64,000 nucleotides of DNA from an uncultured Chloroflexia bacterium (GTDB lineage: Bacteria > Chloroflexota > Limnocylindria > Limnocylindrales > CSP1-4), in the NCBI GenBank assembly GCA_963713975.1, contig OY970218.1, forward strand, positions 1,216,001 through 1,280,000. The letters run 5' to 3'. Numbering within the stretch: position 1 is the stretch's first letter; each line of letters begins with the position of its first letter. The notes beneath the pieces are model-generated. The model was not told the DNA's origin, made no database searches, and saw only the letters and a list, made by a program, of their open reading frames with translations. The position numbers and the translations under genes are program-made. Shown here one piece after another: positions 33,951-57,843 of this stretch.

Positions 33951-33960
33951 GGGTGATCCT

Positions 33961-35867: not shown

Positions 35868-36008
35868 GGGGGCTACTCCAGCGGTGAGCAAGACGGAGGG
35901 CCGTGAGCGTCGAGGCCGCAGCCCTCACCTCACCTGGCCGGCGCGGGGTCGAACGCAGGCGCGTGTCGTGTCGGCCGCAAGGCGGCCGGCGCGCAGGTCG
36001 TTGGCACA

Positions 36009-36116
36009 CCTCGCCTTCGATCTCGGATCCGAACACGTGAGCCACAGGTCAAGTATGTCCGCCGATGGCCTGGACCCGCCATGTGTCAGACGATACACGA
36101 CACCCCTGTCGTAAGA
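36009..36116 (-). repeat. Degenerate direct copy of the ArsR 5' end and promoter (32776-32883)
   Basis: MAHVFGSEIEGE versus MAQVFESDIDAE; shared tcaagtatg and cagacgatacacgacacccctgtcgtaaga. Includes operator copy 2 (36097-36112). Confidence 0.85.
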
Positions 36117-36210
36117 CGGATGGCGAATCGTTGAGCCGCGGCTCAAGAATGAACAGCGAACCGGCGAACCACGTTCCCGCTGATCGCCGCACCGGTAAGG
36201 AACACGAACG

Positions 36211-36750: not shown

Positions 36751-36869
36751 GCGTCCCATCTACTGCCGGCCCGCGCGTCCCCCGGGCCGGCCGTCCCGCA
36801 CCCGCGAGTCCCGCGCGAAGGTGTCCGCGCGGCACTCGCGTGGTGCGGGCCTACCAGAAGGAGGAAAGC

Positions 36870-39608: not shown

Positions 39609-39735
39609 TTTGGTCCCGACGAGCCTTGTAATGCTGGCCCACCGGCTCGTGAGGACGTCGTGACCAGCCGGAGGACGTGTCATGACTGGCCGTAACGTGG
39701 TCGACTCAGCTCCGCGCGGCTTGGCCAAATCACCT

Positions 39736-39784
39736 GTACACAATCTGGCTTGTCCAGCGACCACCCGCGGCCGATAGTGCGGGT
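39736..39784 (+). promoter_or_regulatory. Leaderless promoter with GTACACA box (virB4-virD4-relaxase operon)
   Basis: GTACACAATCTGGC-TTGTCC-N17-GATAGT-N6-ATG; same 49-nt offset to the ATG as at 14791. Confidence 0.75.
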
Positions 39785-42972: not shown

Positions 42973-45341
42973 TCGTCGATCTCGGGTGGGTCGCAGGCTC
43001 GCTCGCATCGCTCGTGCCACTCGCCGCGGCGTTCGTGGGGCTCGCGCTCCTCTTCGTCCTCGTCCTGCGTCTCGTGCCCGTCGCGCGCCAGCGCGCCTAC
43101 GACCGGGTGTCGGCGCGGGAGACGGTCAGGCTCGTCGTCGCGCTGCCGGCGCGGGCCGCCGCCGACGCTGGGCTCGGGGTCGAGCTCATCCGGGCGCTCC
43201 ACCCCCGAGCACGTCGCGGCTTCGATGCCTGGCGCGTCGGCTGGCCGCGCATCGAGCTCCGGCTCGTCTGGCGCGATGGCTCCCTGGCCTTCGAGATCGA
43301 GACCAACAGCCAGGTCGCCGCCGTCGCCATGGCGCAGCTGCGCGCCCTGTATCCCGGGGTGGCCATCGAGACGACCGACGGTCGCGACCAACCCCCGGCC
43401 GCGACCGCGATCGGGCGGCTGGACGGCCCCCGGGGCTGGCCGCTGCGGGAGGTGGCGGCTCCCGAGGCCCGCATCCCCCGTGCCCTCGCCGCGGCGCTCG
43501 AGCATGCCCCCGCCGGTGCCGAGGTGCGGCTGCGGTGCGTCGCACGACCCGTGCCGCCCGAGGCCTGGCGGCGCGACCTCGGCGCCCCGGAGGATGCGAG
43601 CCCCGGATCGCTTCGATCCCTCATCGGGCGCGCGATCGTCGACGCCATCCTGCTCCGGCCGACCGCCGCGACCACGACTCAGTCTCCTGTCCGGACCTCG
43701 CCGGCAGAGCGTGAGGCCCAGGCCCGCAGACGCCGTGGCGTCGTCGGGTTCGACGTCGGCCTCCGCCTCGAGGTCGCGGGGATCGCAGGCCCGGCCGCCG
43801 AGGCGCTGCTGTGGCGGCTGGTCCATGTCACCGCCGAGCTCGACGACGGCCGCCAGGCGATCCGCTGGCAGATCCGGCGTGGCAGCGCCGGGGGAGCGCC
43901 CGCGGCGAGGCTCGCGGACTGGGAGCTCGCCCAGCTGTGGTCCCTGCCCGACGCGTCCTTCGACGAGGCCGGGTTCACTCGCGCGCGCCCGCTCGGGGCC
44001 GCGCCGCCGGCGTCGCCCGACGGCCTCGGGCTCGTGCTCGGCGAGAGCCGCGGTCGAGCGCTGGTGCTGCCCGCCGACGCCCTCGCCCGTCATCTGGCGG
44101 TGTTCGGCTCGACGGGATCGGGCAAGAGCACGCTCTTGCTCAACCTCGTGCTCGCACTGGCGGAATCGCCGATCGGGGCCACGGTCATCGATCCCCATGG
44201 CGACCTGACGACCGACATCCTCGAGCGGCTGCCCGAGAATGCGGCATCCAGGGTCCACGTCCTGCGGCTGGCCGATCGCGACCACCCGCGCGGGTTCAAC
44301 TTCCTCGAGCGCGCGTCGCCCGACGAGGCCCAGCTCGTGACGAGCGAGTTCGTCGAGCTGTTCGAGGACCTGTGGCCGAGGTTTTGCGGCCCCAAGATGC
44401 AGCACTACCTGCGGCACGCGCTCCTGACCCTGCTGGCTGCTCCTGAACCCGGGACGATCATCGAGCTCACCCGCATCCTGACCGACGACGCCTTCCGCGA
44501 GCCGTTGGTCGCCAAGGTCACCGACCCGCTCGTCGCCGCGTTCTGGCGGACCGAGTGGCCGGGGCCCAAGGAGCGCGAGCGCGACAGCTCGATCAAGGCG
44601 GTCCTCAACAAGCTCGGCGCCTTTGTGACCTATGCCTCGATCCGGAACGTGGTGGGGCAGGGGGTCTCGACGATCCGGCCGCGGGCGCTCATGGACCGGG
44701 GCGAGATCCTGCTCGTCGACCTCTCGGGCGTGGGCGGCGACAACGCGAACCTGTTCGGCGCGATGCTGATCAGCCGCTACCTGATCGACGCCACCGGGCG
44801 CCAGGGCACCCCGCGCGACCAGCGGCGCCAGCACGTGCTCGTGGTCGACGAGGCCCAGCGGTTCGACACGCGGGCGATGGGCAAGATCGCCGTGGAGGGT
44901 CGCAAGTTCGGCCTGGCCCTGGCGATCGCCTCGCAGTCGATGGGCGGCCTGGGGGAGCGGCTGCGCGAAACGGTCCTCACCAACGCCGCGTGCCTCGCGC
45001 TCCTCGCCCCGGGCGCCGACGACCTGCGCGGCCTCGGGCGCCTGGTGGCGCCGGTGTCGGTCGACGAGCTCAGCCGCATGCGCCGGTTCGAGGTGCTGCT
45101 CCGGATGCCCGGGCCCGACGGGCGCCCGGGTGTGTACGGCGGAACGGTCAGTGCACCTGGTCCGTCTGACCCTGCCACCGCGGCGGCGATCGTCGCACGG
45201 AGCGACGCGCGCGATGCGCGGCCGGTCGATGGGGTCCGCGCGGAGGTCCTCCGGCGGGCCGGCGGCGACGACGCGGTGCCCAGCAAGGCCGATGTCGCAA
45301 GCGCCGCACCGTCCGAGCAGCAACGCGGCCACCAGTCATGA
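42969..45341 (+). CDS. virD4: Type IV coupling protein (VirD4/TraD-like)
   Basis: N-terminal TM, RHLAVFGSTGSGKST, IDPHGD, VVDEAQRF, EGRKFG, ASQ. GTGA overlap with the previous gene. Confidence 0.88.
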   Translation: MIVDLGWVAGSLASLVPLAAAFVGLALLFVLVLRLVPVARQRAYDRVSARETVRLVVALPARAAADAGLGVELIRALHPRARRGFDAWRVGWPRIELRLVWRDGSLAFEIETNSQVAAVAMAQLRALYPGVAIETTDGRDQPPAATAIGRLDGPRGWPLREVAAPEARIPRALAAALEHAPAGAEVRLRCVARPVPPEAWRRDLGAPEDASPGSLRSLIGRAIVDAILLRPTAATTTQSPVRTSPAEREAQARRRRGVVGFDVGLRLEVAGIAGPAAEALLWRLVHVTAELDDGRQAIRWQIRRGSAGGAPAARLADWELAQLWSLPDASFDEAGFTRARPLGAAPPASPDGLGLVLGESRGRALVLPADALARHLAVFGSTGSGKSTLLLNLVLALAESPIGATVIDPHGDLTTDILERLPENAASRVHVLRLADRDHPRGFNFLERASPDEAQLVTSEFVELFEDLWPRFCGPKMQHYLRHALLTLLAAPEPGTIIELTRILTDDAFREPLVAKVTDPLVAAFWRTEWPGPKERERDSSIKAVLNKLGAFVTYASIRNVVGQGVSTIRPRALMDRGEILLVDLSGVGGDNANLFGAMLISRYLIDATGRQGTPRDQRRQHVLVVDEAQRFDTRAMGKIAVEGRKFGLALAIASQSMGGLGERLRETVLTNAACLALLAPGADDLRGLGRLVAPVSVDELSRMRRFEVLLRMPGPDGRPGVYGGTVSAPGPSDPATAAAIVARSDARDARPVDGVRAEVLRRAGGDDAVPSKADVASAAPSEQQRGHQS

Positions 45342-45356
45342 TCGGCCCGCTGACCG

Positions 45357-45410
45357 GGTGCGCCAGATGGGGCGCCAGATGGGGCGCCGAGACGCCCCTA
45401 TGGGCGCACC
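45357..45410. repeat. Candidate oriT-like repeat cluster
   Basis: GCGCCAGATGGG twice (45360-45383), bracketed by the inverted repeat GGTGCGCC/GGCGCACC, between the coupling protein and relaxase genes. Confidence 0.35.
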
Positions 45411-45453
45411 GATTCCGTGCTCGGGACGCGGGGTCACGGCGAAGGGACCTCAC

Positions 45454-46341
45454 GTGAGCGGACGCCGTGGACAGCCGGCCGCTGGCTCACGCACGCTCGG
45501 GGTCGACCTCGATGCCCTCCCGATCGCGGACAAGGCCGCCCTGCGCCTCCTCATCCGCGCCGATGCCGCCACCGCCTCACAGCTTGCCCGCCTCATCTAC
45601 CGCCGCGAGCGAACCGCCCAGGACCGGCTCCTCGAGCTCTGGCGCACAGGCGCGCTCGAACGATCCACCGACCCCCGCTCCGGCCGAGGAACCGCCACCC
45701 TGGCATACCGCACAAGCCAGATGACCCGAGCACACCTCGGCATTCGCGAGCCGCGTGCCAGCAGTTTGTACCTCCGCCACACCCTCGACATCGTCGAAGC
45801 CGTGTGCGCGCTCGCCGCTCCCGATCCGGCGGACGCACCTCGCGCGGTCCAGGCCTGGCTCACCGAGCGGATGAGCGCAGACCTGCCGGGTCCCGGGATC
45901 AGACCCGACAGCGTCGTCGCCCTGCAGGTGGGTGCACGCTCCGCCGTCCTGTGCCTCGAGATGGACGAGGGGACCCAGCACGCCCCGGTCATCCGGGCCC
46001 GCCTTGCCGCCTACGGCCGTTGGCTGCCCACGCGCGCCGGCTGGCACCTGCTGTTCGTCGTCCAGAGCGAGCAACGCACCCGCTGGTTGCGCCGCCTGGG
46101 GTCCTGGCATGGCCCGGCGTCGCTCGAAGGCCGGTCATGGGTCGTGCGGCTGGCCGACGTCCGCTCCGATGGACTCGACGCGCTGGCGGTGCCCATCGTC
46201 GGCGTGGAGTCAGCCGTGCCGGTCAGTGGCCTCACCCGGGATCCCGCCTCCCGTGAGTCCGCTGCGCCCGTAGGGTCGAACGCCTGGATCGAGCTCCTGG
46301 GCCAAGGCGGCGGTGAGGACCTCAGCCACGCGCTCCGATGA
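45454..46341 (+). CDS. Replication-relaxation (Replic_Relax) family putative relaxase
   Basis: N-terminal wHTH, LRHTLDIVE, IRPDSVV, LEMDEGT; follows the coupling protein. Start uncertain. Confidence 0.8.
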   Translation: MSGRRGQPAAGSRTLGVDLDALPIADKAALRLLIRADAATASQLARLIYRRERTAQDRLLELWRTGALERSTDPRSGRGTATLAYRTSQMTRAHLGIREPRASSLYLRHTLDIVEAVCALAAPDPADAPRAVQAWLTERMSADLPGPGIRPDSVVALQVGARSAVLCLEMDEGTQHAPVIRARLAAYGRWLPTRAGWHLLFVVQSEQRTRWLRRLGSWHGPASLEGRSWVVRLADVRSDGLDALAVPIVGVESAVPVSGLTRDPASRESAAPVGSNAWIELLGQGGGEDLSHALR

Positions 46342-46457
46342 CGCAGGGGAGCCCATGTGCTCGACGGGAACCTCGAGACCGGCGGAATGCCCTCTGGACG
46401 GCCGGCTCGGACAACCGTTCTCAAGACCGGACATCGGTTACAGCTCTTGCTGGCCTC

Positions 46458-48107
46458 TCATGGTCTCGCAGTGCCATGTACCGAGGCCTCGCGGATCAAG
46501 TCAGCCTCCGCCTGCTCGTCGGACAGGGGCTCGTAGGCCATCGCCTTGCAATACTCGTCGAAGCTCCAGCGGGCGAAGCTCGCGGCGAGGTAAGGGAACT
46601 GCTCGCTCGACTCCTCTGCGTACTCGGTGCGCGGGATCGCGTGCTGGTCGTGCAGCGGGTGGCGACAGCGCACGACGACGTAGTCCCCCAGAGCCGCCCA
46701 GTCGCCGTGCAGCGCGGAGCCCGCCGGGATCATGACCGAGTGGTACATGTCCTCCAGCCCAACCTCACGCGACATGTCAAGAAGTCCCTTGTCAGCGGCA
46801 AAGGTGCCCGCGGTGCTGATGTCCTGGAAGTCCTCGGAGACGCCGCGATTCACGTCCGCGCGCAGCTTCGGCAGGAGCCGCTCGAGGATCGCGTGCGGCT
46901 CCCCCTCGGTCCGACCGATAACCTCCTCCGTGTGGAGCATCAAGGCCTTGGTCCGCCCGCGACCGAAATTCTTGAACTCGTCCCAGATCGCCGGCCGCGA
47001 GCTCTCCACCGACAACATCCACTTCAGCTGCACGTAAGCTTCGAAGAGCGACCGGACGGACGGATAGCCGTGCTCCTCGGACCAGAGGGCCGGATGTGAC
47101 ACGAGATGGGCTGCGACCCTCAGAGCGCGCCAGACCACTCCCGTGAGGACGTCGTAGCGATCGTGGTTCCAGATGTCCGGGTCGATGTCGGCCGCCGCCC
47201 GCAGGAATTGGTAGTGCAGCCGGTACAGACGGGCAGCTCCCTGCGCGAGATGGTCCTGATCAGGGGGTGAAGCCTCGCCAGCCGGGACAGTGAGGCAGCG
47301 GAACAGGCGCCCGTTGGCGCGCCAGAACCGCTCGCACCACGCGCCGCCCGCTAGTGAGCCCTCGAGTTCTGCGGCCTGGAAGGAGAGGAACGACGCCCGG
47401 AGTGTCGTCTCGGCGAGCTTCCGCTCACCTTCGCTCACAGGGTTCTCGTAGTTGCGAAGCGCCTTGAAGCCGGGGTCGTCAGGGTGGAAGGAGATCCGCT
47501 GCGTCATGACCATGCCGCGGAGCCAAAGGTAGATGGCGTCGGTCGCGAGTTCCTGGTGCGAGTCGCCGCCGAGGCGCATCGTTTCCCAGAGGTGTTCCTC
47601 TGCTTCGACCAGGTCCGGCACGAGTCCGGCGTCGAAGTGGGGTTGGGCGAGCCATCGACCCGGCGCGTCGTCGTACGCGGCCAGGACGTGGGCGAGCGGC
47701 TCGGGCGAGATGGCGTCATAGATGCCAAGCCGCCTGAACTCGTCCACCAACTCGTTGCGCTCCCGGTCCGGGACACGCTCCCAGTCGGTCAGAAGGCCGT
47801 GGAAGACCGGCTCGCGGTCGCCGCCAAGCGCACCGCGTTCGTGGGCCCTATGGAAGGCGGCTTGCCCTGCATCCAGCGCCTGCGTCGTAGCGCCGCGGGC
47901 GAGGGGCCGGAGGCGAAGCATGGTCAGGAGCCACAGGAAGTCCGGAAAGGCAACCTTCCGGAATGGCCGCAAGGTGGGCGGGATCGGCAGATTGAGCATC
48001 GGCGGGACATGTCGCGTACCCAGCCGGTAGTGGCCGCGGAACGGAGACGGCCGGGATCCGCGATTCGACTTGCGCGAGTCCGCGTCCATCCCATCCATTT
48101 GGAACAT
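46458..48107 (-). CDS. DUF5677-like protein
   Basis: FPDFLWL; C-terminal VRSLFEAY...GSALHGDW pattern. Start uncertain. Confidence 0.6.
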   Translation of the reverse strand: MFQMDGMDADSRKSNRGSRPSPFRGHYRLGTRHVPPMLNLPIPPTLRPFRKVAFPDFLWLLTMLRLRPLARGATTQALDAGQAAFHRAHERGALGGDREPVFHGLLTDWERVPDRERNELVDEFRRLGIYDAISPEPLAHVLAAYDDAPGRWLAQPHFDAGLVPDLVEAEEHLWETMRLGGDSHQELATDAIYLWLRGMVMTQRISFHPDDPGFKALRNYENPVSEGERKLAETTLRASFLSFQAAELEGSLAGGAWCERFWRANGRLFRCLTVPAGEASPPDQDHLAQGAARLYRLHYQFLRAAADIDPDIWNHDRYDVLTGVVWRALRVAAHLVSHPALWSEEHGYPSVRSLFEAYVQLKWMLSVESSRPAIWDEFKNFGRGRTKALMLHTEEVIGRTEGEPHAILERLLPKLRADVNRGVSEDFQDISTAGTFAADKGLLDMSREVGLEDMYHSVMIPAGSALHGDWAALGDYVVVRCRHPLHDQHAIPRTEYAEESSEQFPYLAASFARWSFDEYCKAMAYEPLSDEQAEADLIREASVHGTARP

Positions 48108-48409
48108 GATGCCGTACGGGCCACCAAGGGCGAACGCGGGTGCCAGAGATCAGCGCAGCCGTGGCAAGGACGGCCATTGGCTGCTTGACGACCGCGAACA
48201 GCATGCCAGTAGTGCCGACGCACGCGAGTGCTTTGACAATGATCCAGAGGTATCCGATCAGGACCTACTTGTCCGTTGCGGCGCATCGTCAATCCAGCGA
48301 GGGTGGGTCAGCGCGGGCTCGGGCAGGGGGCGTTCAACTCGTACACCCAGGGTGACCCGGTGAGGCTCGTTGGCCAAAGGTGCCCCTCGTCCATCGGGAC
48401 TCTGCAAGG

Positions 48410-48464
48410 GTACACAAACACGTACACATATAGCATTGACCATGCTGCAGACCGAGCGCATCGT
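48410..48464 (+). promoter_or_regulatory. Promoter with tandem GTACACA boxes upstream of the RNA/ubiquitin-like operon
   Basis: GTACACAAACAC-GTACACATATAGCA-TTGACC-N17-CATCGT. Confidence 0.65.
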
Positions 48465-48470
48465 GCCCTT

Positions 48471-49080
48471 GGGCGACTGAGGCCAGTGGATGCGTACCTG
48501 AGTGCTTCAGTCGCCCGCCACGTTCGATGGTCGAACGGGCAGCGGGCTCCCCGGCACGAGCTCCCACGGCGGTTGCCGTGACCAGGCCAGCGCCGGCGTC
48601 GGGATCCTCTGGGATCTGCGGCGACTGAAGCACCTTACCAACCACATAGCGCTGCCAATCGCGCGCTCTTCGATGCGTGCGATCGCGCGAGGCGTGCCCG
48701 CCACCAGGGCGTGGGCGGAGTCCGACCGGGGGTCGGTCGTCGCGAGGAATTCTCCTCGACGATCCGCAACTCGGTCGTGTTCCGTCCTCGTTGGGCGCGG
48801 CACGACCGGTTTCGGTTCGTTCGGGCGTTGCTCGTCGACGGCTCGTCGTTCCTGGTCGGGACTCTCTCTCACGTTCGGGTGGCGGACGACATCCGCGCCG
48901 GAATGGAGGTGATGCCCCGAAGGGGTTCGATGACGTCGGCGGCCTGCGCGCCCGCCGGTGTTCGCAACTGTTGCGCACCAAAGGACAGGGGCCGATCCTC
49001 GCCGATCGCATCAAGACGGCAGGACGCCGCGCCTGCCTTCGTCTGCCCCGGTCCGCTTGTCATGCGGCGTTCGTTCCACA
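48471..49080 (+). ncRNA. Candidate large structured RNA or 5' leader
   Basis: Perfect 14-bp long-range stem (48502-48515 with 48620-48633), further closing stems and many hairpins; no convincing ORF. Confidence 0.5.
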
Positions 49081-49093
49081 TGGAGGTTTCACC

Positions 49094-49333
49094 GTGCAGA
49101 CGATGCAAGACGCCGAGACGACGAGGGTCGTGTACGGCGTCAACGAGCTCGAACTCGACCTGGCCGGCAAGACGGTCCACGGGATCTGGAAGGCCCTCGA
49201 ACAGGTCTTCAATATCCCGCGCGACGCGGTCATCACGGTCAACGGATCCCGGACCGACGACGAGTACGTCGTGCGCCCGGGCGACGAGATCGAATTCCAG
49301 AAGGCAGCCGGCGTGAAGGGCCAGGCGGTCTGA
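49094..49333 (+). CDS. Ubiquitin-like (ThiS/MoaD beta-grasp) protein with C-terminal extension
   Basis: GGAGG RBS; VITVNG...VVRPGDEIEFQKAAGVKG-QAV. Confidence 0.85.
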   Translation: MQTMQDAETTRVVYGVNELELDLAGKTVHGIWKALEQVFNIPRDAVITVNGSRTDDEYVVRPGDEIEFQKAAGVKGQAV

Positions 49334-49448
49334 CACGCGGGCTTCGGCCACACCTGCAGGGACTCCTGGGTCCGGCGACGCCCAAGCGGCGTGCCGGGCC
49401 CGGGGCCCTTTGGGTCACCGAAACGCCTCAGAAAGGAGCTCACGCAAC

Positions 49449-50219
49449 ATGCAGTCGCGCACGTACCTGCGCATCGAAGGCGATCTGGTGAGCCTGATCA
49501 GCGAGGTCATCGACCGTGAGGTCGCGCTTCCGGATCTCCTGGCCGAGCTCACCACCAACCAAGTTCAGCTGAGCCCGAGGCTGCCAACCGGCTGCCGCTT
49601 CTGGTTCCGTGCCGGGTCGACGGGCCGTACGGTCTTCGTCACCGAGCAGGCCCCGATGCGGCGGACGATCGAGTACCAGACGAGCCGGCGACCGGCGGGC
49701 GAGCCGATCACGTATCGGATCGCCCTGCCGTACGTCGTGTTCGTGGTCTCGACCTATGGCGAGCAGATCGAGGGCCTCGCGACCTACTTCCGACCGGCGC
49801 CCCTGCGCTCGATCGACGATGGGCTGTGCTGCTCGACCCTGCCGAACACGGACGACGATGGGACCGTCTGTCTCGGCTCGGTCAGGGTCAGCGGCGCCAC
49901 CGTTGGCGAACGCGTGGACGCCCTCGTCGGTGCGTTCTGGGCGAGTCGCTTCAATCAGGACCTGCGACGCCATCCGCTCTCGTTCCCCGGTGGCTTCCGG
50001 GCCTGGGCGGCTCGTTCGCGACGGGATCCCCTCGCGGCCCTCTCGATGGCCTACGACCCCTATTGGCGGACCCTCCGCCAGGTCACAGCGCAGATGGCCG
50101 GCGTGGCTCCCACGGACCTGCCGGCGGTCACGCCGATCCCCAGCGAGGCGCCCGAGACCGACGTCCGGACGCCAGACCCGGTGGTCGAGGGAGGTGAGGC
50201 AGATGACCTCGCTGCCTGA
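49449..50219 (+). CDS. Prokaryotic E2 family D (ubiquitin-conjugating-like) protein
   Basis: ALPYVVF, LPNTDDDGTVCLG (candidate catalytic Cys), FWASRFNQDL; AAGGAG RBS. Confidence 0.82.
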   Translation: MQSRTYLRIEGDLVSLISEVIDREVALPDLLAELTTNQVQLSPRLPTGCRFWFRAGSTGRTVFVTEQAPMRRTIEYQTSRRPAGEPITYRIALPYVVFVVSTYGEQIEGLATYFRPAPLRSIDDGLCCSTLPNTDDDGTVCLGSVRVSGATVGERVDALVGAFWASRFNQDLRRHPLSFPGGFRAWAARSRRDPLAALSMAYDPYWRTLRQVTAQMAGVAPTDLPAVTPIPSEAPETDVRTPDPVVEGGEADDLAA

Positions 50220-50466
50220 CACCATCCGGGGACTGCCGGTCGCCCGACCGAGCGATCTCGGGAGCCTGCTGGCGCCGCATCTCAGGGTCGCCGATCCTGA
50301 GAACCCGCTCGTCGGGCTCGAAGCGTCGGCCCTGGCGATCGCGGTGGCGATCCTCAAGGCATCCGGACGAGTCCTGCGCGAGGAGCTGACCCGCGAGCGA
50401 TCGCGGTCCCGCGAACTCGAGCACCTCGTCTACCGCCTGCCGGTGGCCGAGCGGGAGGGGGACTGA
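50203..50466 (+). CDS. Small helical protein within the ubiquitin-like operon
   Basis: 87 aa, GGAGGTGA RBS, overlaps the E2 stop and abuts the JAB start. Confidence 0.7.
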   Translation: MTSLPDTIRGLPVARPSDLGSLLAPHLRVADPENPLVGLEASALAIAVAILKASGRVLREELTRERSRSRELEHLVYRLPVAEREGD

Positions 50467-50467
50467 C

Positions 50468-51301
50468 ATGTTCCCGATCCTTCCTGCGGGCTCACCGGCG
50501 GCGGCCGACACCTCGCTGCCGGCCTTCCTCGTCGCCCATGACGGGCTGTATCTGCGCAAGCGGAGCCTGCTCGGTGTGAGCCAGACGAGGGTCAATGGGG
50601 CCGAGCATCTGCCCCCTGCGACGGAGTACGTCGAGTACGCGCTGCCGAGGATCTCAGCGGACCAGATGGCCCGCGTCGTCGGCTTCTTCCGCTCCATCTA
50701 CCGGGCGCAGCGGACCGAGGCGCTCGTCCTCCTGCTCTGGGCGGGCGAGGGCTTCGAGCTGTTCGTCCCGGACCAGAAGGTGAGCCCCGCCTCGGTGAGC
50801 CACACGCTCGACGCGGCGAGACTGCCGGCCGGATCCCGCGTCGTCGGGTCGATCCACTCTCACGGTGCCTTCGGCGCCCCGGCGAGTGCGATCGACGAAG
50901 ACGACGAGGCGGAGTTCGACGGGCTGCACATCGTCGTCGGGCGCTTCGATCGGCGTCCGTCCTATTCGGCGGCCATCGCCGTCGACGGACGCCGCTTCCG
51001 TATTCCAGTGGCCGATGTCCTGGAACGGCCCCGGAGGCTCGTCGAGCCGCCGGAGGAGTGGTGTCAGCGAGTGACACTCCTGCCGCCGCCGCGGCCGTCG
51101 AAGGACAAGGGCCACCGACCCTCGTCCACCGGCGCTCCGGTGCCGCTCCCTCATCGAGGGGCCCACCGGGTCAGCCGCGTCGATCTCGACGTGGCGCTCG
51201 CCCGGGCGGATGGCCTGGCCTCACAGCTTGGGCTCCACCTCAGCTTCTCGCTCGCCCCGGTCTCCGGGTCGGGTCGGAAGGTGGGTGGCGCCGATGCCTG
51301 A
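50468..51301 (+). CDS. JAB/JAMM metallopeptidase (Prok-JAB, PRTRC protein A-like)
   Basis: RTEALVLL plus SIHSHGAFGAPASAIDEDDE JAMM motif. Confidence 0.88.
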   Translation: MFPILPAGSPAAADTSLPAFLVAHDGLYLRKRSLLGVSQTRVNGAEHLPPATEYVEYALPRISADQMARVVGFFRSIYRAQRTEALVLLLWAGEGFELFVPDQKVSPASVSHTLDAARLPAGSRVVGSIHSHGAFGAPASAIDEDDEAEFDGLHIVVGRFDRRPSYSAAIAVDGRRFRIPVADVLERPRRLVEPPEEWCQRVTLLPPPRPSKDKGHRPSSTGAPVPLPHRGAHRVSRVDLDVALARADGLASQLGLHLSFSLAPVSGSGRKVGGADA

Positions 51302-51995
51302 CCGGGTCGTGCTCATCGGCCTCGGCGGCATCGGGAGCCAGCTCGCACCCTCGCTCGTCCGATACCTCTCATTCCGCCCGGAGCCGCGCCCGCTCCTGGT
51401 CCTCGTCGACGGTGACGCCTACGAGATCTCGAACCGGTCGCGGCAACTCTTCCCCGATGACGCCCTGGGCACGAACAAGGCCGAGGCCTTGGCCCAGGTG
51501 TTCCGCGGGGGTGGGCTTGCGGTCCAGGCGATCGCCGGGTACGTGAGCGCCGACAACGTCGGGCTCGTCGTCCGCGAAGGGGACGTCTGTCTCCTCGCGG
51601 TCGACAACCACCCGACGCGGGCGCTCGTCGACCGGCACATCGCCGCTCTTTCGGACGTGACGCTCATCAGCGGTGGCAACGACGAGACGGACGGCAACGT
51701 CCAGCTCGTCCGTCGCCGCGACGGGTACAGCGTCGATGGCCACCTGGTCGAGATCCACCCGGAGATCGGCCAGGCGGCAGGTGCAGACGTCATGCCGGGT
51801 ACCGGCTGTGCGGCCCTCGCGCCCATTCGGCCCCAGCTCGTCGTGACCAATCTGATGGTCGCAAGCGCGATGCTCAACTGCCTCTGGGCGGTCACCGAGC
51901 AGGGCAGCGTCCCCTACAGCGAGGTCTACCTCGACGTGGTCCATAACGCGGCGCGTAGCCGCAGCTGGCTCCGCGTCCAGGACGGCGCGCAGTAG
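51294..51995 (+). CDS. E1-like ThiF adenylyltransferase
   Basis: LIGLGGIG, VDGDAYEISNRSRQ, NKA, AVDNHPTR, ISGGN, GTGCAA (candidate catalytic Cys). Confidence 0.9.
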   Translation: MPDRVVLIGLGGIGSQLAPSLVRYLSFRPEPRPLLVLVDGDAYEISNRSRQLFPDDALGTNKAEALAQVFRGGGLAVQAIAGYVSADNVGLVVREGDVCLLAVDNHPTRALVDRHIAALSDVTLISGGNDETDGNVQLVRRRDGYSVDGHLVEIHPEIGQAAGADVMPGTGCAALAPIRPQLVVTNLMVASAMLNCLWAVTEQGSVPYSEVYLDVVHNAARSRSWLRVQDGAQ

Positions 51996-52239
51996 GGGAA
52001 TGTGGAGTCAACAGGTGCAATAGCCTGCCGGGGATGCGCCATGCGGCGCTCCCCGGCCGAACCATCTCTGCGGCTCGAAGTGCTGGAGCTGTGGTCAGGG
52101 CGTCTATGTGCGATCCGGCCCCGACGGCCTCCGCTACCTCCTCCAGGAGGTCGACCTGCCAGTCATCGAGGCTGCCTGGGCGGAGTCCAACGCCCGGGAC
52201 TAGACGCGCACCCACTCAGGCGCAGCTGACACTCCCGCC

Positions 52240-52764
52240 ATGACAGCGGCGACCATGTTCACGATCGGCTACCAGGGCTCGTCCCTAGAACACCTGATCG
52301 ACGCGCTCGCGGCCGCGGACGTCTCGGTGCTCGTGGACACCCGCGAGACGCCGATGAGCCGGCGGGCCGAGTTCCGACCCAAGATGCTCCAGGCGGCGCT
52401 CGCCGAGGCTGGCATTGAGTACCGCTCCATCCGAGCGCTCGGTGCGCCGAAGGCGCTGCGGGCTCTGGCGACGGACGACTGGGTCAGGTTCGCTGACGGC
52501 TACCGCGAGCGCCTACTCCTCGCCCGGGAAGAGCTCCATGACCTGGTGCCCCTGATCGAGACCGAGCGCGTCTGCCTGCTCTGCTTCGAGGCCGACCCCG
52601 AAGCCTGCCACCGGTCGCTGCTCGCCCATGAGATCCAGGGACTCCTGGACGAAGCCGCCGTCCATCACCTTCGGCCGGGGCGGCCGGACGAGGCCGATGA
52701 TCTCGAACGTGCGGCGCCGCTTGGCGAGGTTGCCAACCACGAAGTGCAGGTCGCGGGCCGGTAG
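52240..52764 (+). CDS. DUF488-family protein
   Basis: FTIGYQG, LVDTRETPMSR, CLLCFEADPEACHRSLLA. Confidence 0.88.
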   Translation: MTAATMFTIGYQGSSLEHLIDALAAADVSVLVDTRETPMSRRAEFRPKMLQAALAEAGIEYRSIRALGAPKALRALATDDWVRFADGYRERLLLAREELHDLVPLIETERVCLLCFEADPEACHRSLLAHEIQGLLDEAAVHHLRPGRPDEADDLERAAPLGEVANHEVQVAGR

Positions 52765-53448
52765 CTCGATCTCGTACCGCTCGCGAAGCTTCTCCTCCCA
52801 GCGGTCACCGTACTCGCGCACCCACCGGCGGTACGACTCGCCGATCTCCCAGTCGAGGATCCCGATCTCGTGGCCACGACAGCGGTCGTCGTTGCAGGTG
52901 AACTCGTAGGCGAACGACCACGGGATCTGCTCGAGGTCGGCGAGCTCGGCCAGCTCGGTCTCGCCCAGGCCAAGGCGTTGCTGGAGCAGCGCCGCGCGCT
53001 GGCGCTCACTCCACGGCTTCGCCTTCCGCTTCACGAGACGCGTGATCTCCTTTGGCCGGAACATGCCGAGGCTGGTCCCGTCTCGGCGCTGCGCTTCCTG
53101 GATCGCCTCGAGCGAGCGTGCCGGGGGCGGCAGCAGGGCCATCCGCCTTCGCCAGCCGCGGTCGCCAGCGGGCATCGGCCCGTCGAGGAGTGCGATCGTG
53201 TCTTGGTCGACATGGAGGCTCTCCGGGCGGTTGTCGCCGCGGGGTCGGCCGACGACACAGGTGATGACCTGGTACTTCGCGAACCTCTTGTCCGCGAGCC
53301 GGCGGAATGTGACCGGGTACATCCGCACCCACGACCGGGAGTCGAGGTCGACGCCAGCGCAGCAGACGGTCTCGACGTACGACTGGCTGGGGTTGGGATA
53401 CGTCTTGACAACGACCAGGATCCGCCGCTTCGGTGCCCCTGGAATCAC
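52513..53448 (-). CDS. Conserved hypothetical protein (dual-OB-like, DUF488-associated)
   Basis: VVKTYPNPSQSYVETVCCAG, WVRMYPVTFR, DNRPES, ILDWE; AGGAGGT RBS. Confidence 0.7.
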   Translation of the reverse strand: MIPGAPKRRILVVVKTYPNPSQSYVETVCCAGVDLDSRSWVRMYPVTFRRLADKRFAKYQVITCVVGRPRGDNRPESLHVDQDTIALLDGPMPAGDRGWRRRMALLPPPARSLEAIQEAQRRDGTSLGMFRPKEITRLVKRKAKPWSERQRAALLQQRLGLGETELAELADLEQIPWSFAYEFTCNDDRCRGHEIGILDWEIGESYRRWVREYGDRWEEKLRERYEIELPARDLHFVVGNLAKRRRTFEIIGLVRPPRPKVMDGGFVQESLDLMGEQRPVAGFGVGLEAEQADALGLDQGHQVMELFPGEE

Positions 53449-54143
53449 GCCCACCTCCTATCGACGGTGCGAGCCACCATGGGCTCCAGAGTAGGGCCGC
53501 CGGCGGCCGCTCTGCCTCGAGATCGATCCAGCGAGCACCTTCGCTCGGAACTGGTCGTCGCGTCGAAGACGCTTGATGAAGCAACGGCCGCGACGTGCTC
53601 GGCAAGTTGCCGCCGTCGATCCGCCAGGATGGCGTCCGCCTGAGCTGATCCAGCCTGGGGATCGTCGCGCAGATGTACAGGCACAGGCGCGAACATGCGA
53701 TCCATGATCAGCCCGCCGCGCTCGGCGTCCGCTCCTGACGCCGGCCCATTGTGCTCCTCGGCCATGCTGAAGTTGGACGCGCCCGCAGGTGCTGCGCAGG
53801 TTCTCCATCGCAGTGGAATCTCCTGCGATGTGGTCGATTTCGGGCGCGGGATCTCCGCAGATCACGCACCTGTGCTCGTCCCGGCTGAAGACCTGTTCCC
53901 GGATCGTTGCAGGCCCCGGCGCTGGGTCTCGTGGTAGCCGCCGGCGAGGATGTGGGCGAGCCTCCTCCGCCAGGCATCCTCGATCCTCGGATCCGCTAGC
54001 CAGCGGCCGTCGGCGATGGTGGCGCGCGCATAGCGAATCAGCTTGACCGTCTGGCGGCACGCGGGCGAGCAGTAGAGCTTGGCCCGGCCCGTGAGCTCGA
54101 TCGGCGCACCGCACTCGACGCACTCGACGACGACCGGTCGCAT
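53445..54143 (-). pseudogene. HNH endonuclease with N-terminal Zn finger, two compensating frameshifts
   Basis: CVECG...YCSPACR, then (shift near 53914) VFSRDEHRCVICG...EIDHI...NLRSTC, then (shift near 53780) NFSMAEE... ending in a GTGA overlap with the next gene. Confidence 0.7.
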
Positions 54144-54474
54144 GAGGTCGTCCACGACCGTGATCACTCGAGCGTCGAGTCCTGGTTCCACGTGCTCATA
54201 GTCGCGGACCACGGACGAGGCGGAAAGGGCGCGGAAGTACCAACGCGCCGACGGCGCCGGAGAGACATCCCGCAGAGGCACGGCGCGGAAGCGCGCGCAA
54301 TCTTCCTCACCTCCTGCCCCCTGTCAAGGGACAGGTGAATCTGGACGGAGACGGTCACGAGATCTGGACGCTGGCGGACGCCGGAGCTGGACGCTGGCGG
54401 CCATGAGAACTGGACACCGTCCGTTCTCTCTCCCTCGGTGACGCTGAGTGGAGTCGCGCTGCGTCCAGCGGGCG

Positions 54475-55365
54475 TCAGCCGCCCTCGCCCGCGGACAGGG
54501 CCTGGACCCCGCGCCCGTCGAGCGCCTCGGCGAGGCGATGTGACCGGCCCTCGGTGACGATGACGTGGGCGTGGTGGAGCAGCCGGTCGACCGCTGCGGT
54601 GGCCAGGCCCTTGGGGAAGATGGTGTCGAAGCGGGCCGGGTGGAGGTTCGAGGTCAGGATCAGCGAGCGCTTCTCGTACGCCGCGTCGACGAGACGGTAG
54701 AGGGCCTCGGCCTCGTCCGCCCCGGCGGGCAGGAGGCCGATGTCATCGATCACGACCAGCTCCGAGCGCACGATCCGCTCGACGACCTTGCCGGTGGTGG
54801 CGTCGATCCGCGACCGGGCGATGGTGGCGGTCAGGGTCTCGAGGCTGAACCAGCTGACCCGCAGGTCGCGGTCGATCGCGGCATGGGCGATCGCCTCGGC
54901 GAAGTGGCTCTTGCCGGTCCCTGACGGTCCGACCAGGACGAGGTTTTCGGCGCGCCCGATCCAGTCGAGGCTCCGGAGCGCCCATTGGGCGTCGCCCGGG
55001 ATCGCCGAGGCCGCAGGATCCCAGGCATCGAACGTCTTGCCCGAGGGCAGCCTCGCTGCCTTGCGGTGGAGCTCCCGGGTCGACCGGTCGCGGCCGGCCG
55101 CCTCCTCCGCGAGCAGGACCTTGAGCACCCGGGCATGGTCCCAGCCCTCGTCGCGCGCCCGGGCCAGGACCGCGGGTCCCGCCAGCCGGACGTAGCGCAG
55201 GCGGAGCCTGTGGAGCAGCCGTGCGATATCGGGCGGCAGCGGCGGTGGCGCGACCGGCTGCAGGCGGGGTGGCAGCTCGCGCCATTGGGCGAACTCGTCG
55301 GCGGCCTCGGCGCCCTGGAGCCGGCTGCGGGTCTCGTAGGCATCGTGCGACGGGCCGCCGGTCAC
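54475..55365 (-). CDS. istB: IS21 helper ATPase IstB
   Basis: GPSGTGKSH, VVIDDIG, LTSN, VDRLLHHA; GTGA overlap with istA. Confidence 0.95.
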   Translation of the reverse strand: MTGGPSHDAYETRSRLQGAEAADEFAQWRELPPRLQPVAPPPLPPDIARLLHRLRLRYVRLAGPAVLARARDEGWDHARVLKVLLAEEAAGRDRSTRELHRKAARLPSGKTFDAWDPAASAIPGDAQWALRSLDWIGRAENLVLVGPSGTGKSHFAEAIAHAAIDRDLRVSWFSLETLTATIARSRIDATTGKVVERIVRSELVVIDDIGLLPAGADEAEALYRLVDAAYEKRSLILTSNLHPARFDTIFPKGLATAAVDRLLHHAHVIVTEGRSHRLAEALDGRGVQALSAGEGG

Positions 55366-56855
55366 CGGCCCAGGTCCTCCCAAGCGCCCGTGCCCGGTTG
55401 GAGCGTGTCATCGGCGTCACCCGATCCGAGGCGCTCGCCCGCCCGGTCGCCCATGAGCCGGCGGTGGTCGAGGATCGACTCGAGGTCGCCCTCGGCGAAG
55501 CGGCCCGCCTCGGCCGCGAGGGCCAGGGCCTCGTCGACCGGGACGGCACCGACGAGGGCGGCAAGCTCGGTCGCCCGGCGCATCTTGGTCCGGATCCGCT
55601 CGGTGCCCGAGGCGGCGGCGAGGATCAGCCAGCGCTCGGCACCCTCGCCGAGCCCGAGGAACGCGGTCTCCTCGGGGCTCACGGCCCGCGGCCGCGGGTT
55701 GAGCGGATCGGTCGTGCGCTCGGGATAGTGGGCCGGATCGATCCGGGGGTTGCCGGGCGTCGTGAGCGGGTGGCGGGCGACCTCGCGGGCTCCCGGCGGT
55801 CCCTGGTGGACGACGACGAGCTCGTCGCCGTCGACCCGCACCCAGACCCGCTCGCCGACGAGCTTGTGCGGCACCGAGTAGCGGGCGGAGCCGTGGCGGA
55901 CCGTCGACTCGTCGTCGACGACCCGGGTCAGCCCGAAGGCGACCGTGTACGGCTCGACGGGGACGGGGTGGAGCCGCCGGCGCTCGTCGGCGAGCAGCTC
56001 GAGGGGTGGCCGCCGGGTCTCGCGATGGGGGCGCTCGTTGACTTGCGTGCAGAACGCGGCGCAGGCGACCCGGAGGGCCGTGAACGAGGGGTAGGCCTCG
56101 AGCAGGTTCGCGTCGGTCGGGACCAGATCGGCCTTGGCGATCTTGACCGTGCTCTCCGAGCCGCCCTTGGACGCCGGGTCGGCCGGCACGCAGGCGTGGA
56201 TGACGAGCCCGTAGTGGCGGGCGGCGGCGACGAGGATCGGGTGCTTCACCGCGATCCCGGCCACCCGGTCGACCGTGACCGTCCGCTCGTTGTCGGTGAG
56301 GGCGTACGTGGGGGCACCGCCGAACCGGCGGAGGGTCTCGTCGAGACAGGCGATCACGGTCGGCAGCGTCCGGTCCCAGGTCGGGATGATCACCCGGTAC
56401 CGGCTCCAGGCGAGCCAGGCGCACCACAGCAGCGTGTCGCGGCCGGCGATCACGGGACCCTTGCCCCAGTCGAACTGGAACCACATGCCGGGCTCGGGGA
56501 TCCAGGGTCGGAAGACGCGCCGGTGGCCCGCCGCATACGCGTGCTTGATGTCGGCGACTGCCCGTCGGGTGGTCCGCTCGGAGCCGTCGAAGCCGAGCGC
56601 GAGCAGCTTCTCGTGGGCGATGTCGGCGCGGACCCGGCCATGGCTGCGCTCGACCCACTCCTCGAGCTTGGCGAGGTACGGATCGACGATCTGGTCACGA
56701 CGCACCGGGTCAGGGGCGACCTGGCCTCGCTCGCGCAGTCGGACATAGCGGGCAACCGTCATCGGCGAGCAGCCGGTGAGGCGTGCCGCCTCGCGCAGGC
56801 TGCCCGTCAGGTCGAACGCCTCGAGGATCTCCACCACGTCTCCGGCATGCTTCAC
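55362..56855 (-). CDS. istA: IS21 transposase IstA
   Basis: HTH (SLREAARLTGCSPMTV); DDE residues in QFDWG, LTDNE, SKGGSE; GAGGAGG RBS. Confidence 0.95.
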   Translation of the reverse strand: MKHAGDVVEILEAFDLTGSLREAARLTGCSPMTVARYVRLRERGQVAPDPVRRDQIVDPYLAKLEEWVERSHGRVRADIAHEKLLALGFDGSERTTRRAVADIKHAYAAGHRRVFRPWIPEPGMWFQFDWGKGPVIAGRDTLLWCAWLAWSRYRVIIPTWDRTLPTVIACLDETLRRFGGAPTYALTDNERTVTVDRVAGIAVKHPILVAAARHYGLVIHACVPADPASKGGSESTVKIAKADLVPTDANLLEAYPSFTALRVACAAFCTQVNERPHRETRRPPLELLADERRRLHPVPVEPYTVAFGLTRVVDDESTVRHGSARYSVPHKLVGERVWVRVDGDELVVVHQGPPGAREVARHPLTTPGNPRIDPAHYPERTTDPLNPRPRAVSPEETAFLGLGEGAERWLILAAASGTERIRTKMRRATELAALVGAVPVDEALALAAEAGRFAEGDLESILDHRRLMGDRAGERLGSGDADDTLQPGTGAWEDLGR

Positions 56856-57843
56856 CACGTCCCTCCTCTGCTCACCCTGGGTTGTCTCAGCAACCCCCAG
56901 CGTGCGTGGGGAGGGACGCTTGATGTTCACGGTGTCCGTGAGGGGACCGTGGGGCGGGCTGTCCAGATCGCGTGGCCGGCGGCGTTCAGATCTCGTGGCC
57001 GCCGGCGTCCAGCTTCCTGTCCGCCTGCGTCCAGATTCCCATGGCCGCTGTCACCCCCGGCCACCGTCGGTCGAGATCCCGAGCGCGATCCAGCTGTGGG
57101 ACCGAGCTCTCGATTGGATGTACACGAATACGTACGCGCCCCGAAGGGGCCGCTGAGCCTCGTCTTCCCCGGCAACTCCTAGTCACAACCTATTCAATCT
57201 CCAGGAGATTCATCTGGGGGGCTACAGGGAACGCCGCAGCCTCTCGCGGTAGCTGGTGCTCGACCGGGCCCACAGGGACAACGGCGAGCCACTCGGTCAC
57301 AGGCTGTAGCTGGGTCAGGGCGGCCAGGACGCGGTGCAAGTCGTAGGTCCGGCCTGCCGACCGCGGGCGCCGCGGTCACCGGAAGCTCCCGATGACACGA
57401 GGCTTGGGCGGCGGGGGTGGTTCGAGCATGGCCATGGCGATCGCGCGGACCATCGCGCCCGCCGCGGTGTTCAGTTCGACCCGCGACGAGCCGGCACCTG
57501 TCTGTGCGCGACCGTTGGGGTCAACTTCCTCGTCACGCCGGCGACGCTCCTGCACGCGCGGATTGGCGCGGTCAGCGGTATGGGGCCGTCGGTCGTGAAC
57601 GCCGTGGCTCCGTCAGCATCCGCGTGACGGCTCGGGCCGAGCGCTGGGGGCAAGGTCCCCGCCGCTGCGGACGGAAGCGCATGCGCTTCCCGATCGGGGA
57701 CCCGTCGGAGCGTGGGCAACCGACGGCGCACCTGCTCTGGGAGCTGGCGGCCCCGTGCGGGCAGGGCCGCGACCCTGAGCGTTGGACGTCCAGCGGTGCG
57801 GGCGTCGACGATCGTGCGCTTCGGAGCACACGAGTGTCCTGCA

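Follow-up and report, generated by a model that had tools for sequence, protein, structure and literature searches.

The stretch analysed here, 64,000 nucleotides (nt) of contig OY970218.1 from an uncultured Chloroflexia bacterium (hereafter the window), carries at positions 49094-51995 five genes that together appear to encode a complete pathway for tagging other proteins with a ubiquitin-like protein (Ubl), namely a Ubl precursor, an E2-like protein, an 87-amino-acid (aa) open reading frame (ORF), a JAB-type metallopeptidase and a ThiF-type E1. On the reading that we favour, and to which we would give somewhat better than an even chance, this operon is a fixed backbone module of a family of integrative conjugative elements (ICEs) in soil and sediment Chloroflexota and most likely serves the element itself, since it travels with the transfer genes and a recombinase, and the neighbouring cargo is what changes. 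It might control transfer or excision, help the element to establish itself in a new host (counter-defence included) or stabilise it, and the fixed position of the cassette in the backbone argues for a part in the element's own life cycle.

We infer the chemical steps, the targets and the biological role of the operon from sequence, and picture the pathway as follows. The operon would be transcribed behind a structured leader of ~600 nt, which probably gates its expression. The JAB peptidase would cut a tail of 1-3 residues off the 79-aa, ThiS-like Ubl, exposing Gly76; the minimal ThiF-type E1 would adenylate Gly76 and take the Ubl onto Cys172, from where it would move to Cys141 of a UBC-fold E2 that lacks the classical HPN His. 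The E2 would then join the Ubl to a target, which it may choose directly, as no E3 is encoded, with the 87-aa protein perhaps acting as an adaptor or regulator. The JAB peptidase could also undo the Ubl mark.

The operon and its proteins

The operon and the element that precedes it consist of:

48500-49093, + strand: conserved structured non-coding element of ~590 nt, a probable 5' leader RNA, directly 5' of the Ubl gene
49094-49333, + strand: Ubl precursor, 79 aa, with a GTG start, GGAGG 7 nt 5' of it and the C-terminus AGVKG-QAV
49449-50219, + strand: E2-like protein, 256 aa, with DDGTVCLG
50203-50466, + strand: small ORF, 87 aa, with its ATG 17 nt inside the E2 gene
50468-51301, + strand: JAB/JAMM metallopeptidase, 277 aa, beginning 1 nt past the stop of the small ORF, with HSH-x7-S-xx-D and Glu84 upstream of it
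51294-51995, + strand: minimal ThiF-type E1, 233 aa, whose ATG overlaps the JAB stop by 8 nt, with GLGGIG, NRSRQ and GTGCAAL

The five genes lie on the same strand of a window with a G+C content of ~70%, and the last four overlap or abut. An earlier note on this DNA, made from the letters alone, had described this operon and its motifs, and all of them are indeed present. Searches with the three Pfam models that the note had named matched all three families, with only ThiF above its cut-off (59.8 bits for the E1, cut-off 28.1). The E2-like protein scores 22.9 bits with Prok-E2_D and the JAB protein 22.1 bits with Prok-JAB (cut-off 25 for each), and the Ubl reaches 21.9 bits with ThiS (E 2.6e-4), slightly under the cut-off of 22.5. 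A locus scan covering one genome per species found the cassette in 52 loci of other genomes. By record titles, 49 of these belong to Chloroflexota metagenome-assembled genomes, binned as Limnocylindria or 'Chloroflexia'; an Acidimicrobiia bin accounts for two more, and the last comes from a bin labelled Legionella, on a contig of 1.9 kb. In every locus long enough, tblastn gave the order Ubl, E2, a slot of ~245 nt, JAB and E1, and the recurrence of this order in the 52 loci, with every catalytic residue invariant, places the arrangement far beyond chance.

ThiS is the only family signal of the Ubl: Pfam Prok_Ub gave no match, NCBIfam PRTRC_C gave none at E<=0.1, and ThiS was found in 21-44% of the members of the nearest ESM Atlas clusters (score 0.97-0.98). 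Aligned relatives are 58-95% identical to the window copy. The AGVKG end is present in 44 of the 45 relatives with a traceable Ubl frame, the exception (L046) being a broken frame, and is followed by a tail of 1-3 residues that varies in both sequence and length, mostly three residues and in five relatives a single Arg. In an alignment of 28 sequences, F68, K70, A72, G73, V74, K75 and G76 are invariant and the columns beyond are not. A conserved core that stops at the Gly and then gives way to a free-running tail, together with a JAMM peptidase in the same operon, supports the reading of the Ubl as a precursor with a predicted mature end at Gly76, from which the QAV tail is predicted to be removed. 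The variable tail thus agrees with the earlier note, which had seen the C-terminal Gly as masked by three residues, the cleavage itself being a prediction.

The E2-like protein is 67-90% identical to the window copy in the alignment of relatives, and Prok-E2_D matches 19 of 19 members of the family at E<=0.01 (best 6.2e-7). Profile searching across 1.84 billion representatives brought up 1556 relatives with E<=0.001, of which 546 reach E<=1e-10. At the 90%-cluster level there are 237 relatives, the best 120 of which are 67-96% identical and nearly all unnamed. The predicted catalytic Cys141 sits in LPN-x7-C, which we take to resemble the HPN...C motif of eukaryotic E2s; it is invariant in the 19 close sequences and at least 90% conserved across 48 sequences that include remote relatives. 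H175 is likewise invariant in the 19 close sequences and is absent from the conserved columns of the 48-sequence alignment. The protein also carries an N-terminal extension and an acidic C-terminal tail.

An AlphaFold2 model of the E2 from the 48-sequence alignment reached a pLDDT of 85.2 and a pTM of 0.73, and replaced a model from the 19 close sequences that was unusable (pLDDT 53.7). When this model was compared by VIA-align with 48,161 representative chains, every one of the top 20 rows bore the title of an E2 enzyme (Z 5.1-4.2, with 98-124 aligned residues, root-mean-square deviation (rmsd) 3.6-4.8 Å), the best being UBE2D2 in 8jwu_A (Z 5.1, rmsd 3.6 Å, 111 residues, model residues 42-203). 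UEV domains followed in lower rows, as did the bacterial chains 8hsb_B (CdnG-E2 complex) and 9eav_D (Citrobacter BubCD-BubB-BubA), both at Z 3.7. The sequence profile of the E2 found nothing meaningful in the PDB. Since the Z values are modest, we base the fold call on the uniform list of E2 rows combined with the Pfam signal and the motif; taken together these indicate that the modelled core is a UBC-like fold superposable on solved E2 enzymes. The lack of a UBC fold, which the earlier note had listed as evidence that would speak against conjugation, is thus not what the model suggests. Many of the remote E2 relatives (P0152-P0270) are long proteins of 350-860 aa in which the E2_D-like domain is central or C-terminal. 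Their N-terminal parts mostly have no Pfam family, one giving a weak CysZ/EI24 match (23.5 bits, cut-off 32), and a cluster look-up of ten remote relatives returned no informative names.

In 37 of 42 loci the slot between the E2 and JAB genes contains an ORF of 85-102 aa. One of the five exceptions has a truncated ORF of 64 aa, and the other four are loci with neighbouring genes that are also frame-shifted. The G+C content at third codon positions is 0.66 in the frame-shifted L006 and 0.70-0.99 in the other 36 ORFs. Among ten relatives of equal length, the differences at codon positions 1, 2 and 3 number 447, 330 and 995, and 783 synonymous codon changes compare with 604 non-synonymous ones. 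Identity to the window copy is 26-87%; M1 and A43 are invariant, and L4, P25, E40, E60, L62, L72, R78 and P80 are at least 90% conserved. No Pfam or NCBIfam family matched any of 28 members even at E<=10, the window copy had no PADLOC match either, and the ESM Atlas was uninformative (best score 0.85, unnamed clusters). Other Chloroflexota have Prok-E2_D cassettes in which no small ORF separates E2_D from JAB, these two genes directly overlapping or abutting. Judged by its codon pattern and its distribution, the 87-aa ORF is a real, fast-evolving and clade-specific coding gene, and by its 17-nt overlap with the E2 gene and 1-nt gap to the JAB gene it is in all appearance translationally coupled to both. 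Complex prediction of the 87-aa protein with E2, JAB and E1 gave an ipSAE of 0.00 in both runs, from which controls were absent, and is uninformative on binding.

In the JAB protein, E84, H130, S131, H132, S140 and D143 are invariant among 27 sequences, as are R30, W91 and W198. The protein, 51-92% identical to the window copy among relatives, has an extension of ~80 residues before the JAMM Glu and a variable C-terminal region, and its profile finds Rpn11 and AfJAMM weakly in the PDB (E ~0.3). We predict that it both processes the Ubl and removes it from conjugates. The E1 is more alike among relatives (66-96% identity to the window copy), with G9, G11, G12, G14, D39, N47, R50, Q51, K62, D104 and C172 invariant in 27 sequences. 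Its closest solved relatives are MoeB, MccB, Uba4 and Uba1 (E 1e-8 to 3e-7), MoeB being the closest. Catalytic cysteines of E1 enzymes sit in a crossover loop, and the predicted catalytic Cys172, the only invariant Cys of the protein, lies in an otherwise variable loop.

The probable structured leader

The leader is found upstream of the Ubl gene in 44 of the 52 loci with a nucleotide identity of 67-88%, the remaining loci mostly having no upstream flank. It appears to be non-coding, because all six frames score alike in tblastn; a coding reading was rejected on these equal scores and on the lack of a conserved frame after the invariant GGAGGTGATG within the leader. RNAalifold on 22 leader sequences gave 115 pairs, 26 of them with compensatory double changes, and a consensus energy of -131.9 on the + strand and -108.0 on the - strand, compared with -30 to -47 for five column shuffles. 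In the 5' half (48510-48761), 97.0% of cells are paired as against 32-45% when the partners are slid, and 16 pairs and 64 cells show double changes (the tool warns that kinship among sequences inflates such counts); none of 500 shuffles reached the cell count or the covariation score.

A covariance model of the leader (254 positions, 56 pairs) has one match in its own genome, at the window site, and matches 11 of 151 genomes of the class. Ten of these matches share the strand of the E2 gene and precede it by 0.7-0.95 kb, the eleventh being at the end of a contig, so that the leader appears strictly coupled to the cassette at a fixed distance. An Rfam search of 45000-54500 at E<=1 found no family matching the leader, its sole match being a chance CRISPR-repeat hit inside a gene. 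With good covariation support, the leader is a candidate for a new large regulatory RNA.

Several observations touch on transcription. Metatranscriptome contigs of relatives (85-99% alike) from four runs or studies cover the leader and the genes; one RNA-library contig of 1225 nt starts at 48481 and reaches into the E2 gene, and in two runs contigs start at 48481 or 48482 (the share of sampled words in the RNA runs was small, 0.10-0.15). By eye, a candidate promoter can be placed just upstream, with TTGACC at 48446-48451 and, after 17 nt, CATCGT at 48469-48474, ending 7 nt before 48481. A promoter and terminator scan of 48000-52400 returned no promoter-like site and one terminator-like site, at chance level. 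We take the RNA-library coverage and the promoter pair as a weak hint of leader transcription, since DNA carry-over and assembly ends could account for these points.

The conjugative element and the possible role of the cassette

The other features of the element in the window, the first five annotated with Pfam, NCBIfam and PADLOC, are:

15441-16148: type IV secretion system (T4SS) pilin
39686-42022, + strand: VirB4/TraG-like ATPase
41749-42972, + strand: M23/SLT cell-wall hydrolase
within 42303-45341, + strand: HerA/FtsK-type coupling ATPase
45130-46341, + strand: Replic_Relax protein
46458-48107, - strand: DUF5677 protein, variable cargo (PADLOC DitA, E 5.1e-27; DUF5677, 30.3 bits)
51997-52116, + strand: remnant of ~40 codons of an AAA_16 ATPase, found by tblastn with the ATPase of locus L003
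52240-52764, + strand, and 52513-53454, - strand: DUF488 protein and its partner, variable cargo (PADLOC candidates PDC-M19A, E 1.8e-30, and PDC-M19B, E 2.7e-48)

The surroundings of the cassette in other genomes point to a constant frame with changing contents. A coupling ATPase gene, a Replic_Relax gene or both were found within the 6-kb upstream flank in 12 of the 52 loci. Of five further records, two have these genes on the same strand at distances of 10 and 27 kb upstream, and two gave no match. On the other side, more than 20 loci share a conserved stretch of ~70 nt directly 3' of the E1 stop, and in 33 of 53 loci, a total that takes in the window, the next gene is an AAA_16 ATPase gene (~414 aa, 51.1 bits; L003:3550-4791). 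The L003 ATPase matches the window with 47.5% identity over 40 aa (E 8e-5) and nothing beyond. Farther 3', past the ATPase gene, lies a tyrosine integrase in 10 loci and a serine recombinase in 7. With a structured leader on one side and, in many loci, an ATPase gene on the other, the operon is less minimal than the earlier note had it.

The genes next to the cassette are exchanged from one element to another, and E2 and E1 remain 66-96% identical across elements with differing neighbours. The DitA gene of the window is absent from the corresponding position in the relatives, and the PDC-M19 pair was not found adjoining the cassette there. The longest 120 of 189 candidate ORFs from the flanks of relatives were scanned with PADLOC, and 24 of the 120 matched at E<=1e-5, among them Shedu, AbiEii, SoFic, pAgo and RmrA/CapP-like regulators. 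Judged by these contents, the slots on either side of the cassette are hotspots for defence genes. Since the cassette keeps its place between the T4SS, coupling and relaxase genes and the AAA ATPase with its recombinase while the cargo around it varies, it is to all appearances a conserved backbone module of a family of Chloroflexota conjugative elements and not cargo. The earlier note had placed the operon beside a conjugation module; the conjugation genes are real and lie upstream in the element, and what has to be revised is the status of the parts, the cassette itself belonging to the backbone and the flanking DitA and DUF488/PDC-M19 genes being variable cargo.

Examples of cargo in the relatives, with short pAgo, Shedu (SduA), SoFic and AbiEii among them, are found at L036:5924-7027, L003:5864-7630, L024:3659-4849 and L022:3285-4904. 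In the window the two PDC-M19 frames overlap convergently by ~250 nt, for which reason one start or end is probably mis-set. An IS21-family element (istA/istB; 54475-56930, - strand) lies 2.5 kb downstream of the cassette, and L030, L033 and L035 have IS21 copies (79-91% protein identity) 2-4 kb upstream of their cassettes. Elsewhere in the window, a Type ISP-like restriction-modification enzyme (N6_Mtase and Type_ISP_C) crosses the left edge and is followed by a Schlafen/AlbA_2 protein (1-4489); two frames with Phd/YefM antitoxin domains lie just 5' of the T4SS pilin gene (14813-15744 and 15441-17295); Tad-like pilus genes (T2SSF, 20780-21802; RcpC/CpaB, 24678-25412) and an ECF-type sigma factor gene (26356-27225) come next; and a block of metal and redox cargo spans 27968-37466, with three cation-efflux (CDF) genes, ArsR, DsbA/thioredoxin-like, PCYCGC and AhpC/TSA-like proteins.

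The distribution of the cassette within the class is sporadic. Its E2 was found in 17 of 301 sampled genomes of the class (one of the 17, G296, is unpublished) and in none of 11 other genomes of the window's genus, and the window's own genome (3.62 Mb) holds a single E2 copy. A bin may contain up to five copies of the cassette, and many copies lie at contig ends, as would be expected of a repeated mobile element. Neither tblastn of PLSDB plasmids with the E2 nor a pattern scan of IMG/VR contigs with the close-family alignment found a relative.

Several of our results weigh against a conjugation pathway that serves the element. Three of the four Pfam family scores of the window proteins (E2, JAB and Ubl) fall just below their cut-offs. 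The Ubl profile picks an S4 RNA-binding domain from the PDB (E 0.006) and no ThiS or ubiquitin, and the terminal motif of the Ubl is a single Gly after Lys, not Gly-Gly. The structural match of the E2 is modest (best Z 5.1), and Foldseek found nothing in the PDB for its model at E<=0.001. Transfer genes were present in the fetched flank of only 12 of the 52 loci, and in one of the five further records the sole coupling-ATPase match has a position that exceeds the length of the cassette's contig and so belongs to another contig. That the neighbours of the cassette are often defence genes, as in the 24 flank ORFs and in the DitA and PDC-M19 genes of the window, fits a defence role too. Finally, the element in the window may be decaying, given the truncated ATPase gene, the nearby IS21 and the failure to recognise a recombinase gene downstream of E1.

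Phage defence is the main rival to a role in the service of the element. The cassette would then be a Bil-type anti-phage system carried by the element, tagging a phage protein and thereby blocking virion assembly, and its constant position would be a favoured slot of a defence island. We regard this as unlikely, even though the operon encodes the same four activities as BilABCD (as described in the available text of the Corbett-laboratory preprints), a STAND-like AAA_16 ATPase often follows it, and DitA and PDC-M19 matches flank it here as Shedu, AbiEii, SoFic, pAgo and others do in relatives. The E1 is the only protein of the cassette with PADLOC matches, of which BilD is the first and Cap2-type E1-E2 models the next; yet the BilD match amounts to 30.5 bits over residues 26-143 (~118 residues) of the searched ORF, the BilA, BilB and BilC models match nothing in the cassette at E<=0.1, and the E1 is a single domain of 233 aa. 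Moreover, true defence cargo is swapped around a cassette that stays constant in position and orientation relative to the backbone, and the E2, the expected reader of targets, is unusually conserved (67-96% for the best 120 of the 237 clusters), unlike fast-evolving specificity factors. The missing relatives among PLSDB plasmids and IMG/VR contigs, with the queries used, also speak against defence. A second alternative, which we find very improbable, is a sulfur-carrier pathway in which a ThiS-like protein trimmed by a JAMM peptidase would be adenylated and thiocarboxylated, delivering sulfur for a cofactor or small molecule. In such pathways, of which CysO/Mec and QbsE/QbsD are examples, a JAMM peptidase does unmask the C-terminus of the carrier, and both the ThiS signal of the Ubl and the best named matches of the E1, ThiF and MoeB, would fit. 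It is the E2 in the operon that makes this role unlikely, a UBC-fold protein with an invariant Cys that is translationally linked to its neighbours; the mobile-element setting and a C-terminus of VKG, not GG, point the same way. The families that recur next to the cassette are the ATPase, recombinases, the coupling ATPase and Replic_Relax. Rhodanese, thiazole, molybdopterin and cysteine-synthase genes are missing from the recurrent neighbours in the 52 loci (the non-recurrent ones being partly annotated), so that homologs in thiamine or molybdopterin operons, which the earlier note would have counted against conjugation, did not turn up among them.

The leader, in turn, might be a DNA element of the transfer machinery, either an origin of transfer (oriT) or a single-strand promoter or initiation site of the Frpo/ssi type, in which case the operon would lie in a leading region and be expressed early in the recipient. 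Both Frpo elements and an early expression of leading regions have been described (PMC11541004), and the position of the leader between the Replic_Relax gene and the operon, its multiple conserved hairpins and the moderate strand preference of its consensus fold (-131.9 against -108.0) would suit such a site. Single-sequence energies do not separate the strands, the + strand being favoured in 7 of 22. Against this stand the length of the leader, far beyond that of known Frpo/ssi sites (searched in regions of 50-350 bp, according to the available text of PMC11541004), its tie to the cassette and not to the relaxase gene, from which variable cargo separates it, the many G-U pairs on its + strand and the lack of a sigma-70-like hexamer pair inside it; the RNA-library contigs that start at its 5' edge and run into the genes argue weakly in the same direction. 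We give a DNA element a low probability. If the leader is instead an RNA and the cassette serves the element, one could imagine that the leader senses a cellular or transfer signal and switches on the operon, and that the E1-E2 pair, steered by the 87-aa protein, tags proteins of the host or recipient (defence or repair factors, for instance) or regulators of the element, and so secures transfer or establishment. This fuller picture is speculative and we would not expect it to hold in all its parts; if true, it would be the first ubiquitin-like system that works for a mobile element rather than against one, and the leader would found a new class of large regulatory RNAs.

Comparison with known systems

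Bacterial operons of E1, E2, JAB and Ubl were predicted in 2006, and one of the classes then defined, 6d, is carried on mobile DNA and comprises, besides an alpha-helical protein that diverges rapidly, an E2-like and an E1-like protein, a JAB and a Ubl (Iyer, Burroughs & Aravind 2006, Genome Biol 7:R60, PMC1779556). As described there, the 6d E2 lacks the classical HPN His and has an absolutely conserved His C-terminal to the Cys, and at its N-terminus the 6d JAB bears an additional alpha+beta domain recognisable by a conserved Arg and Trp. The class corresponds to Pfam Prok-E2_D (PF14460), Prok-JAB and Prok_Ub (PF14454). The present cassette shares with it an operon on mobile DNA that has a gene each for the Ubl, E2-like, JAB and E1-like proteins, an E2 with a conserved Cys and without the classical HPN His (LPN here), a JAB with an additional N-terminal region (R30 and W91 of the JAB are invariant) and an extra, rapidly diverging small protein. 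It differs in its ThiS-like Ubl, remote cassettes of the phylum carrying Prok_Ub at 43-52 bits, and in gene order: the Chloroflexota Prok-E2_D cassettes read Prok_Ub, an ORF of ~290 aa, E2_D, JAB and ThiF, with E2_D scores of 58-88 bits compared with 22.9 bits here, whereas the present cassette has its 87-aa ORF between E2 and JAB and nothing between Ubl and E2. H175, too, is invariant in the close family only, and neither a structured leader nor a fixed place in a Chloroflexota conjugative element is described for 6d. Equating the 87-aa ORF with the alpha-helical protein of 6d is unsupported by size or position relative to the ~290-aa ORF. The classical Prok_Ub/E2_D cassettes (L074-L082) belong to other families of the phylum, with radical-SAM neighbours in L075 and L081 and an integrase in L078, and their ~290-aa ORF has no Pfam family. 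In the literature we found no functional study of the 6d/PRTRC class, only mentions at the level of annotation, and supplements may list 6d operons.

The earlier note had called the operon a PRTRC-like variant (PRTRC standing for ParB-related, ThiF-related cassette), a label that does not hold up well. PRTRC_B is the sole NCBIfam match of the E2 and PRTRC_A that of the JAB, and PRTRC_ThiF ranks second to ThiF for the E1. None of these matches reaches its cut-off: PRTRC_B (TIGR03737) scores 24.0 bits (cut-off 131.45; at best 31.8 bits among 19 sampled remote E2 relatives), PRTRC_A (TIGR03735) 21.8 bits (cut-off 101.8) and PRTRC_ThiF (TIGR03736) 47.7 bits (cut-off 144.75), the last over nearly the full length (32-244 of the 261-aa searched ORF). 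The scores thus fall 3- to 5-fold short, the Ubl is ThiS-like and the gene order is another one. PRTRC_C (TIGR03738) found no match in the whole genome, which is 92% complete, and PRTRC_parB (TIGR03734) matches no cassette member, giving two generic matches to the ParB N-terminal part far from the window (131.7 and 118.7 bits, cut-off 278.6). The further accessory proteins of PRTRC systems bear the names D, E and F; none was found among the ten cassette and flank proteins scanned with NCBIfam, the whole genome lying outside that scan. In these searches, then, as in the earlier note, no ParB or other PRTRC accessory gene is seen to accompany the cassette. The carriage of PRTRC genes on ICEs and plasmids, mentioned at the level of annotation in the available text of several papers, is a point in common, and the high conservation of the present E2 sets it apart from PRTRC protein B, for which a 2026 preprint describes retroelement-driven diversification. 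Given the PRTRC scores below cut-off, the ThiS-like Ubl and the different gene order of true Prok-E2_D cassettes, the cassette is best regarded as a lineage of its own within the 6d class, distantly related to the PRTRC cassettes and not a PRTRC member that lost its accessory genes.

Among systems with known biochemistry, conjugation is described for CBASS type II, Bil (Types I and II, the latter being 6C/CEHH) and Bub (6E), further families being called uncharacterised in the available text of the Corbett-laboratory papers. There, too, the JAB peptidase of Bil is described as pre-processing its Ubl (10.1101/2023.09.26.559546), the E2 is proposed to select targets without an E3, and Bub is said to use Ser and Tyr oxyesters and a DUF6527 protease. 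Like Bil and Bub, the present cassette holds Ubl, E2, peptidase and E1 in a single operon. It differs from BilABCD in its single-domain E1 of 233 aa, the Bil E1 being multidomain (~450 aa) with an inactive and an active adenylation domain and a separate Cys domain, and from Bub, whose E1 and E2 lack catalytic Cys, in that both Cys (C172 of the E1 and C141 of the E2) are invariant; Pfam DUF6527 was not found among the five cassette proteins. Furthermore, Bil and Bub lie in defence islands, unlike the present cassette in the backbone of a conjugative element.

With the ThiS/ThiF and MoaD/MoeB pairs the cassette has in common a single ThiF-type adenylation domain, MoeB being its closest solved relative, and a ThiS-like Ubl. 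It is set apart from them by the E2 and JAB, by the masked C-terminus with a single Gly and by the mobile-element setting. MoeB and ThiF carry zinc-binding Cys pairs, whereas the present E1 has one invariant Cys only.

In summary, what appears to be new is a cassette variant that departs from 6d and PRTRC in the type of its Ubl, in gene order and in its small ORF, and that is preceded by an unreported leader. Conjugation by CBASS type II, Bil and Bub has in each case been shown in an immunity setting, and 6d/PRTRC is the class most closely tied to conjugative elements; a role of the present cassette in the service of its element would, if true, show that ubiquitin-like tagging is used by mobile DNA. 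With its very small E1, the obvious processing site of its Ubl, its highly conserved genes and its fixed position in the backbone, this lineage offers a clean entry point to that class.

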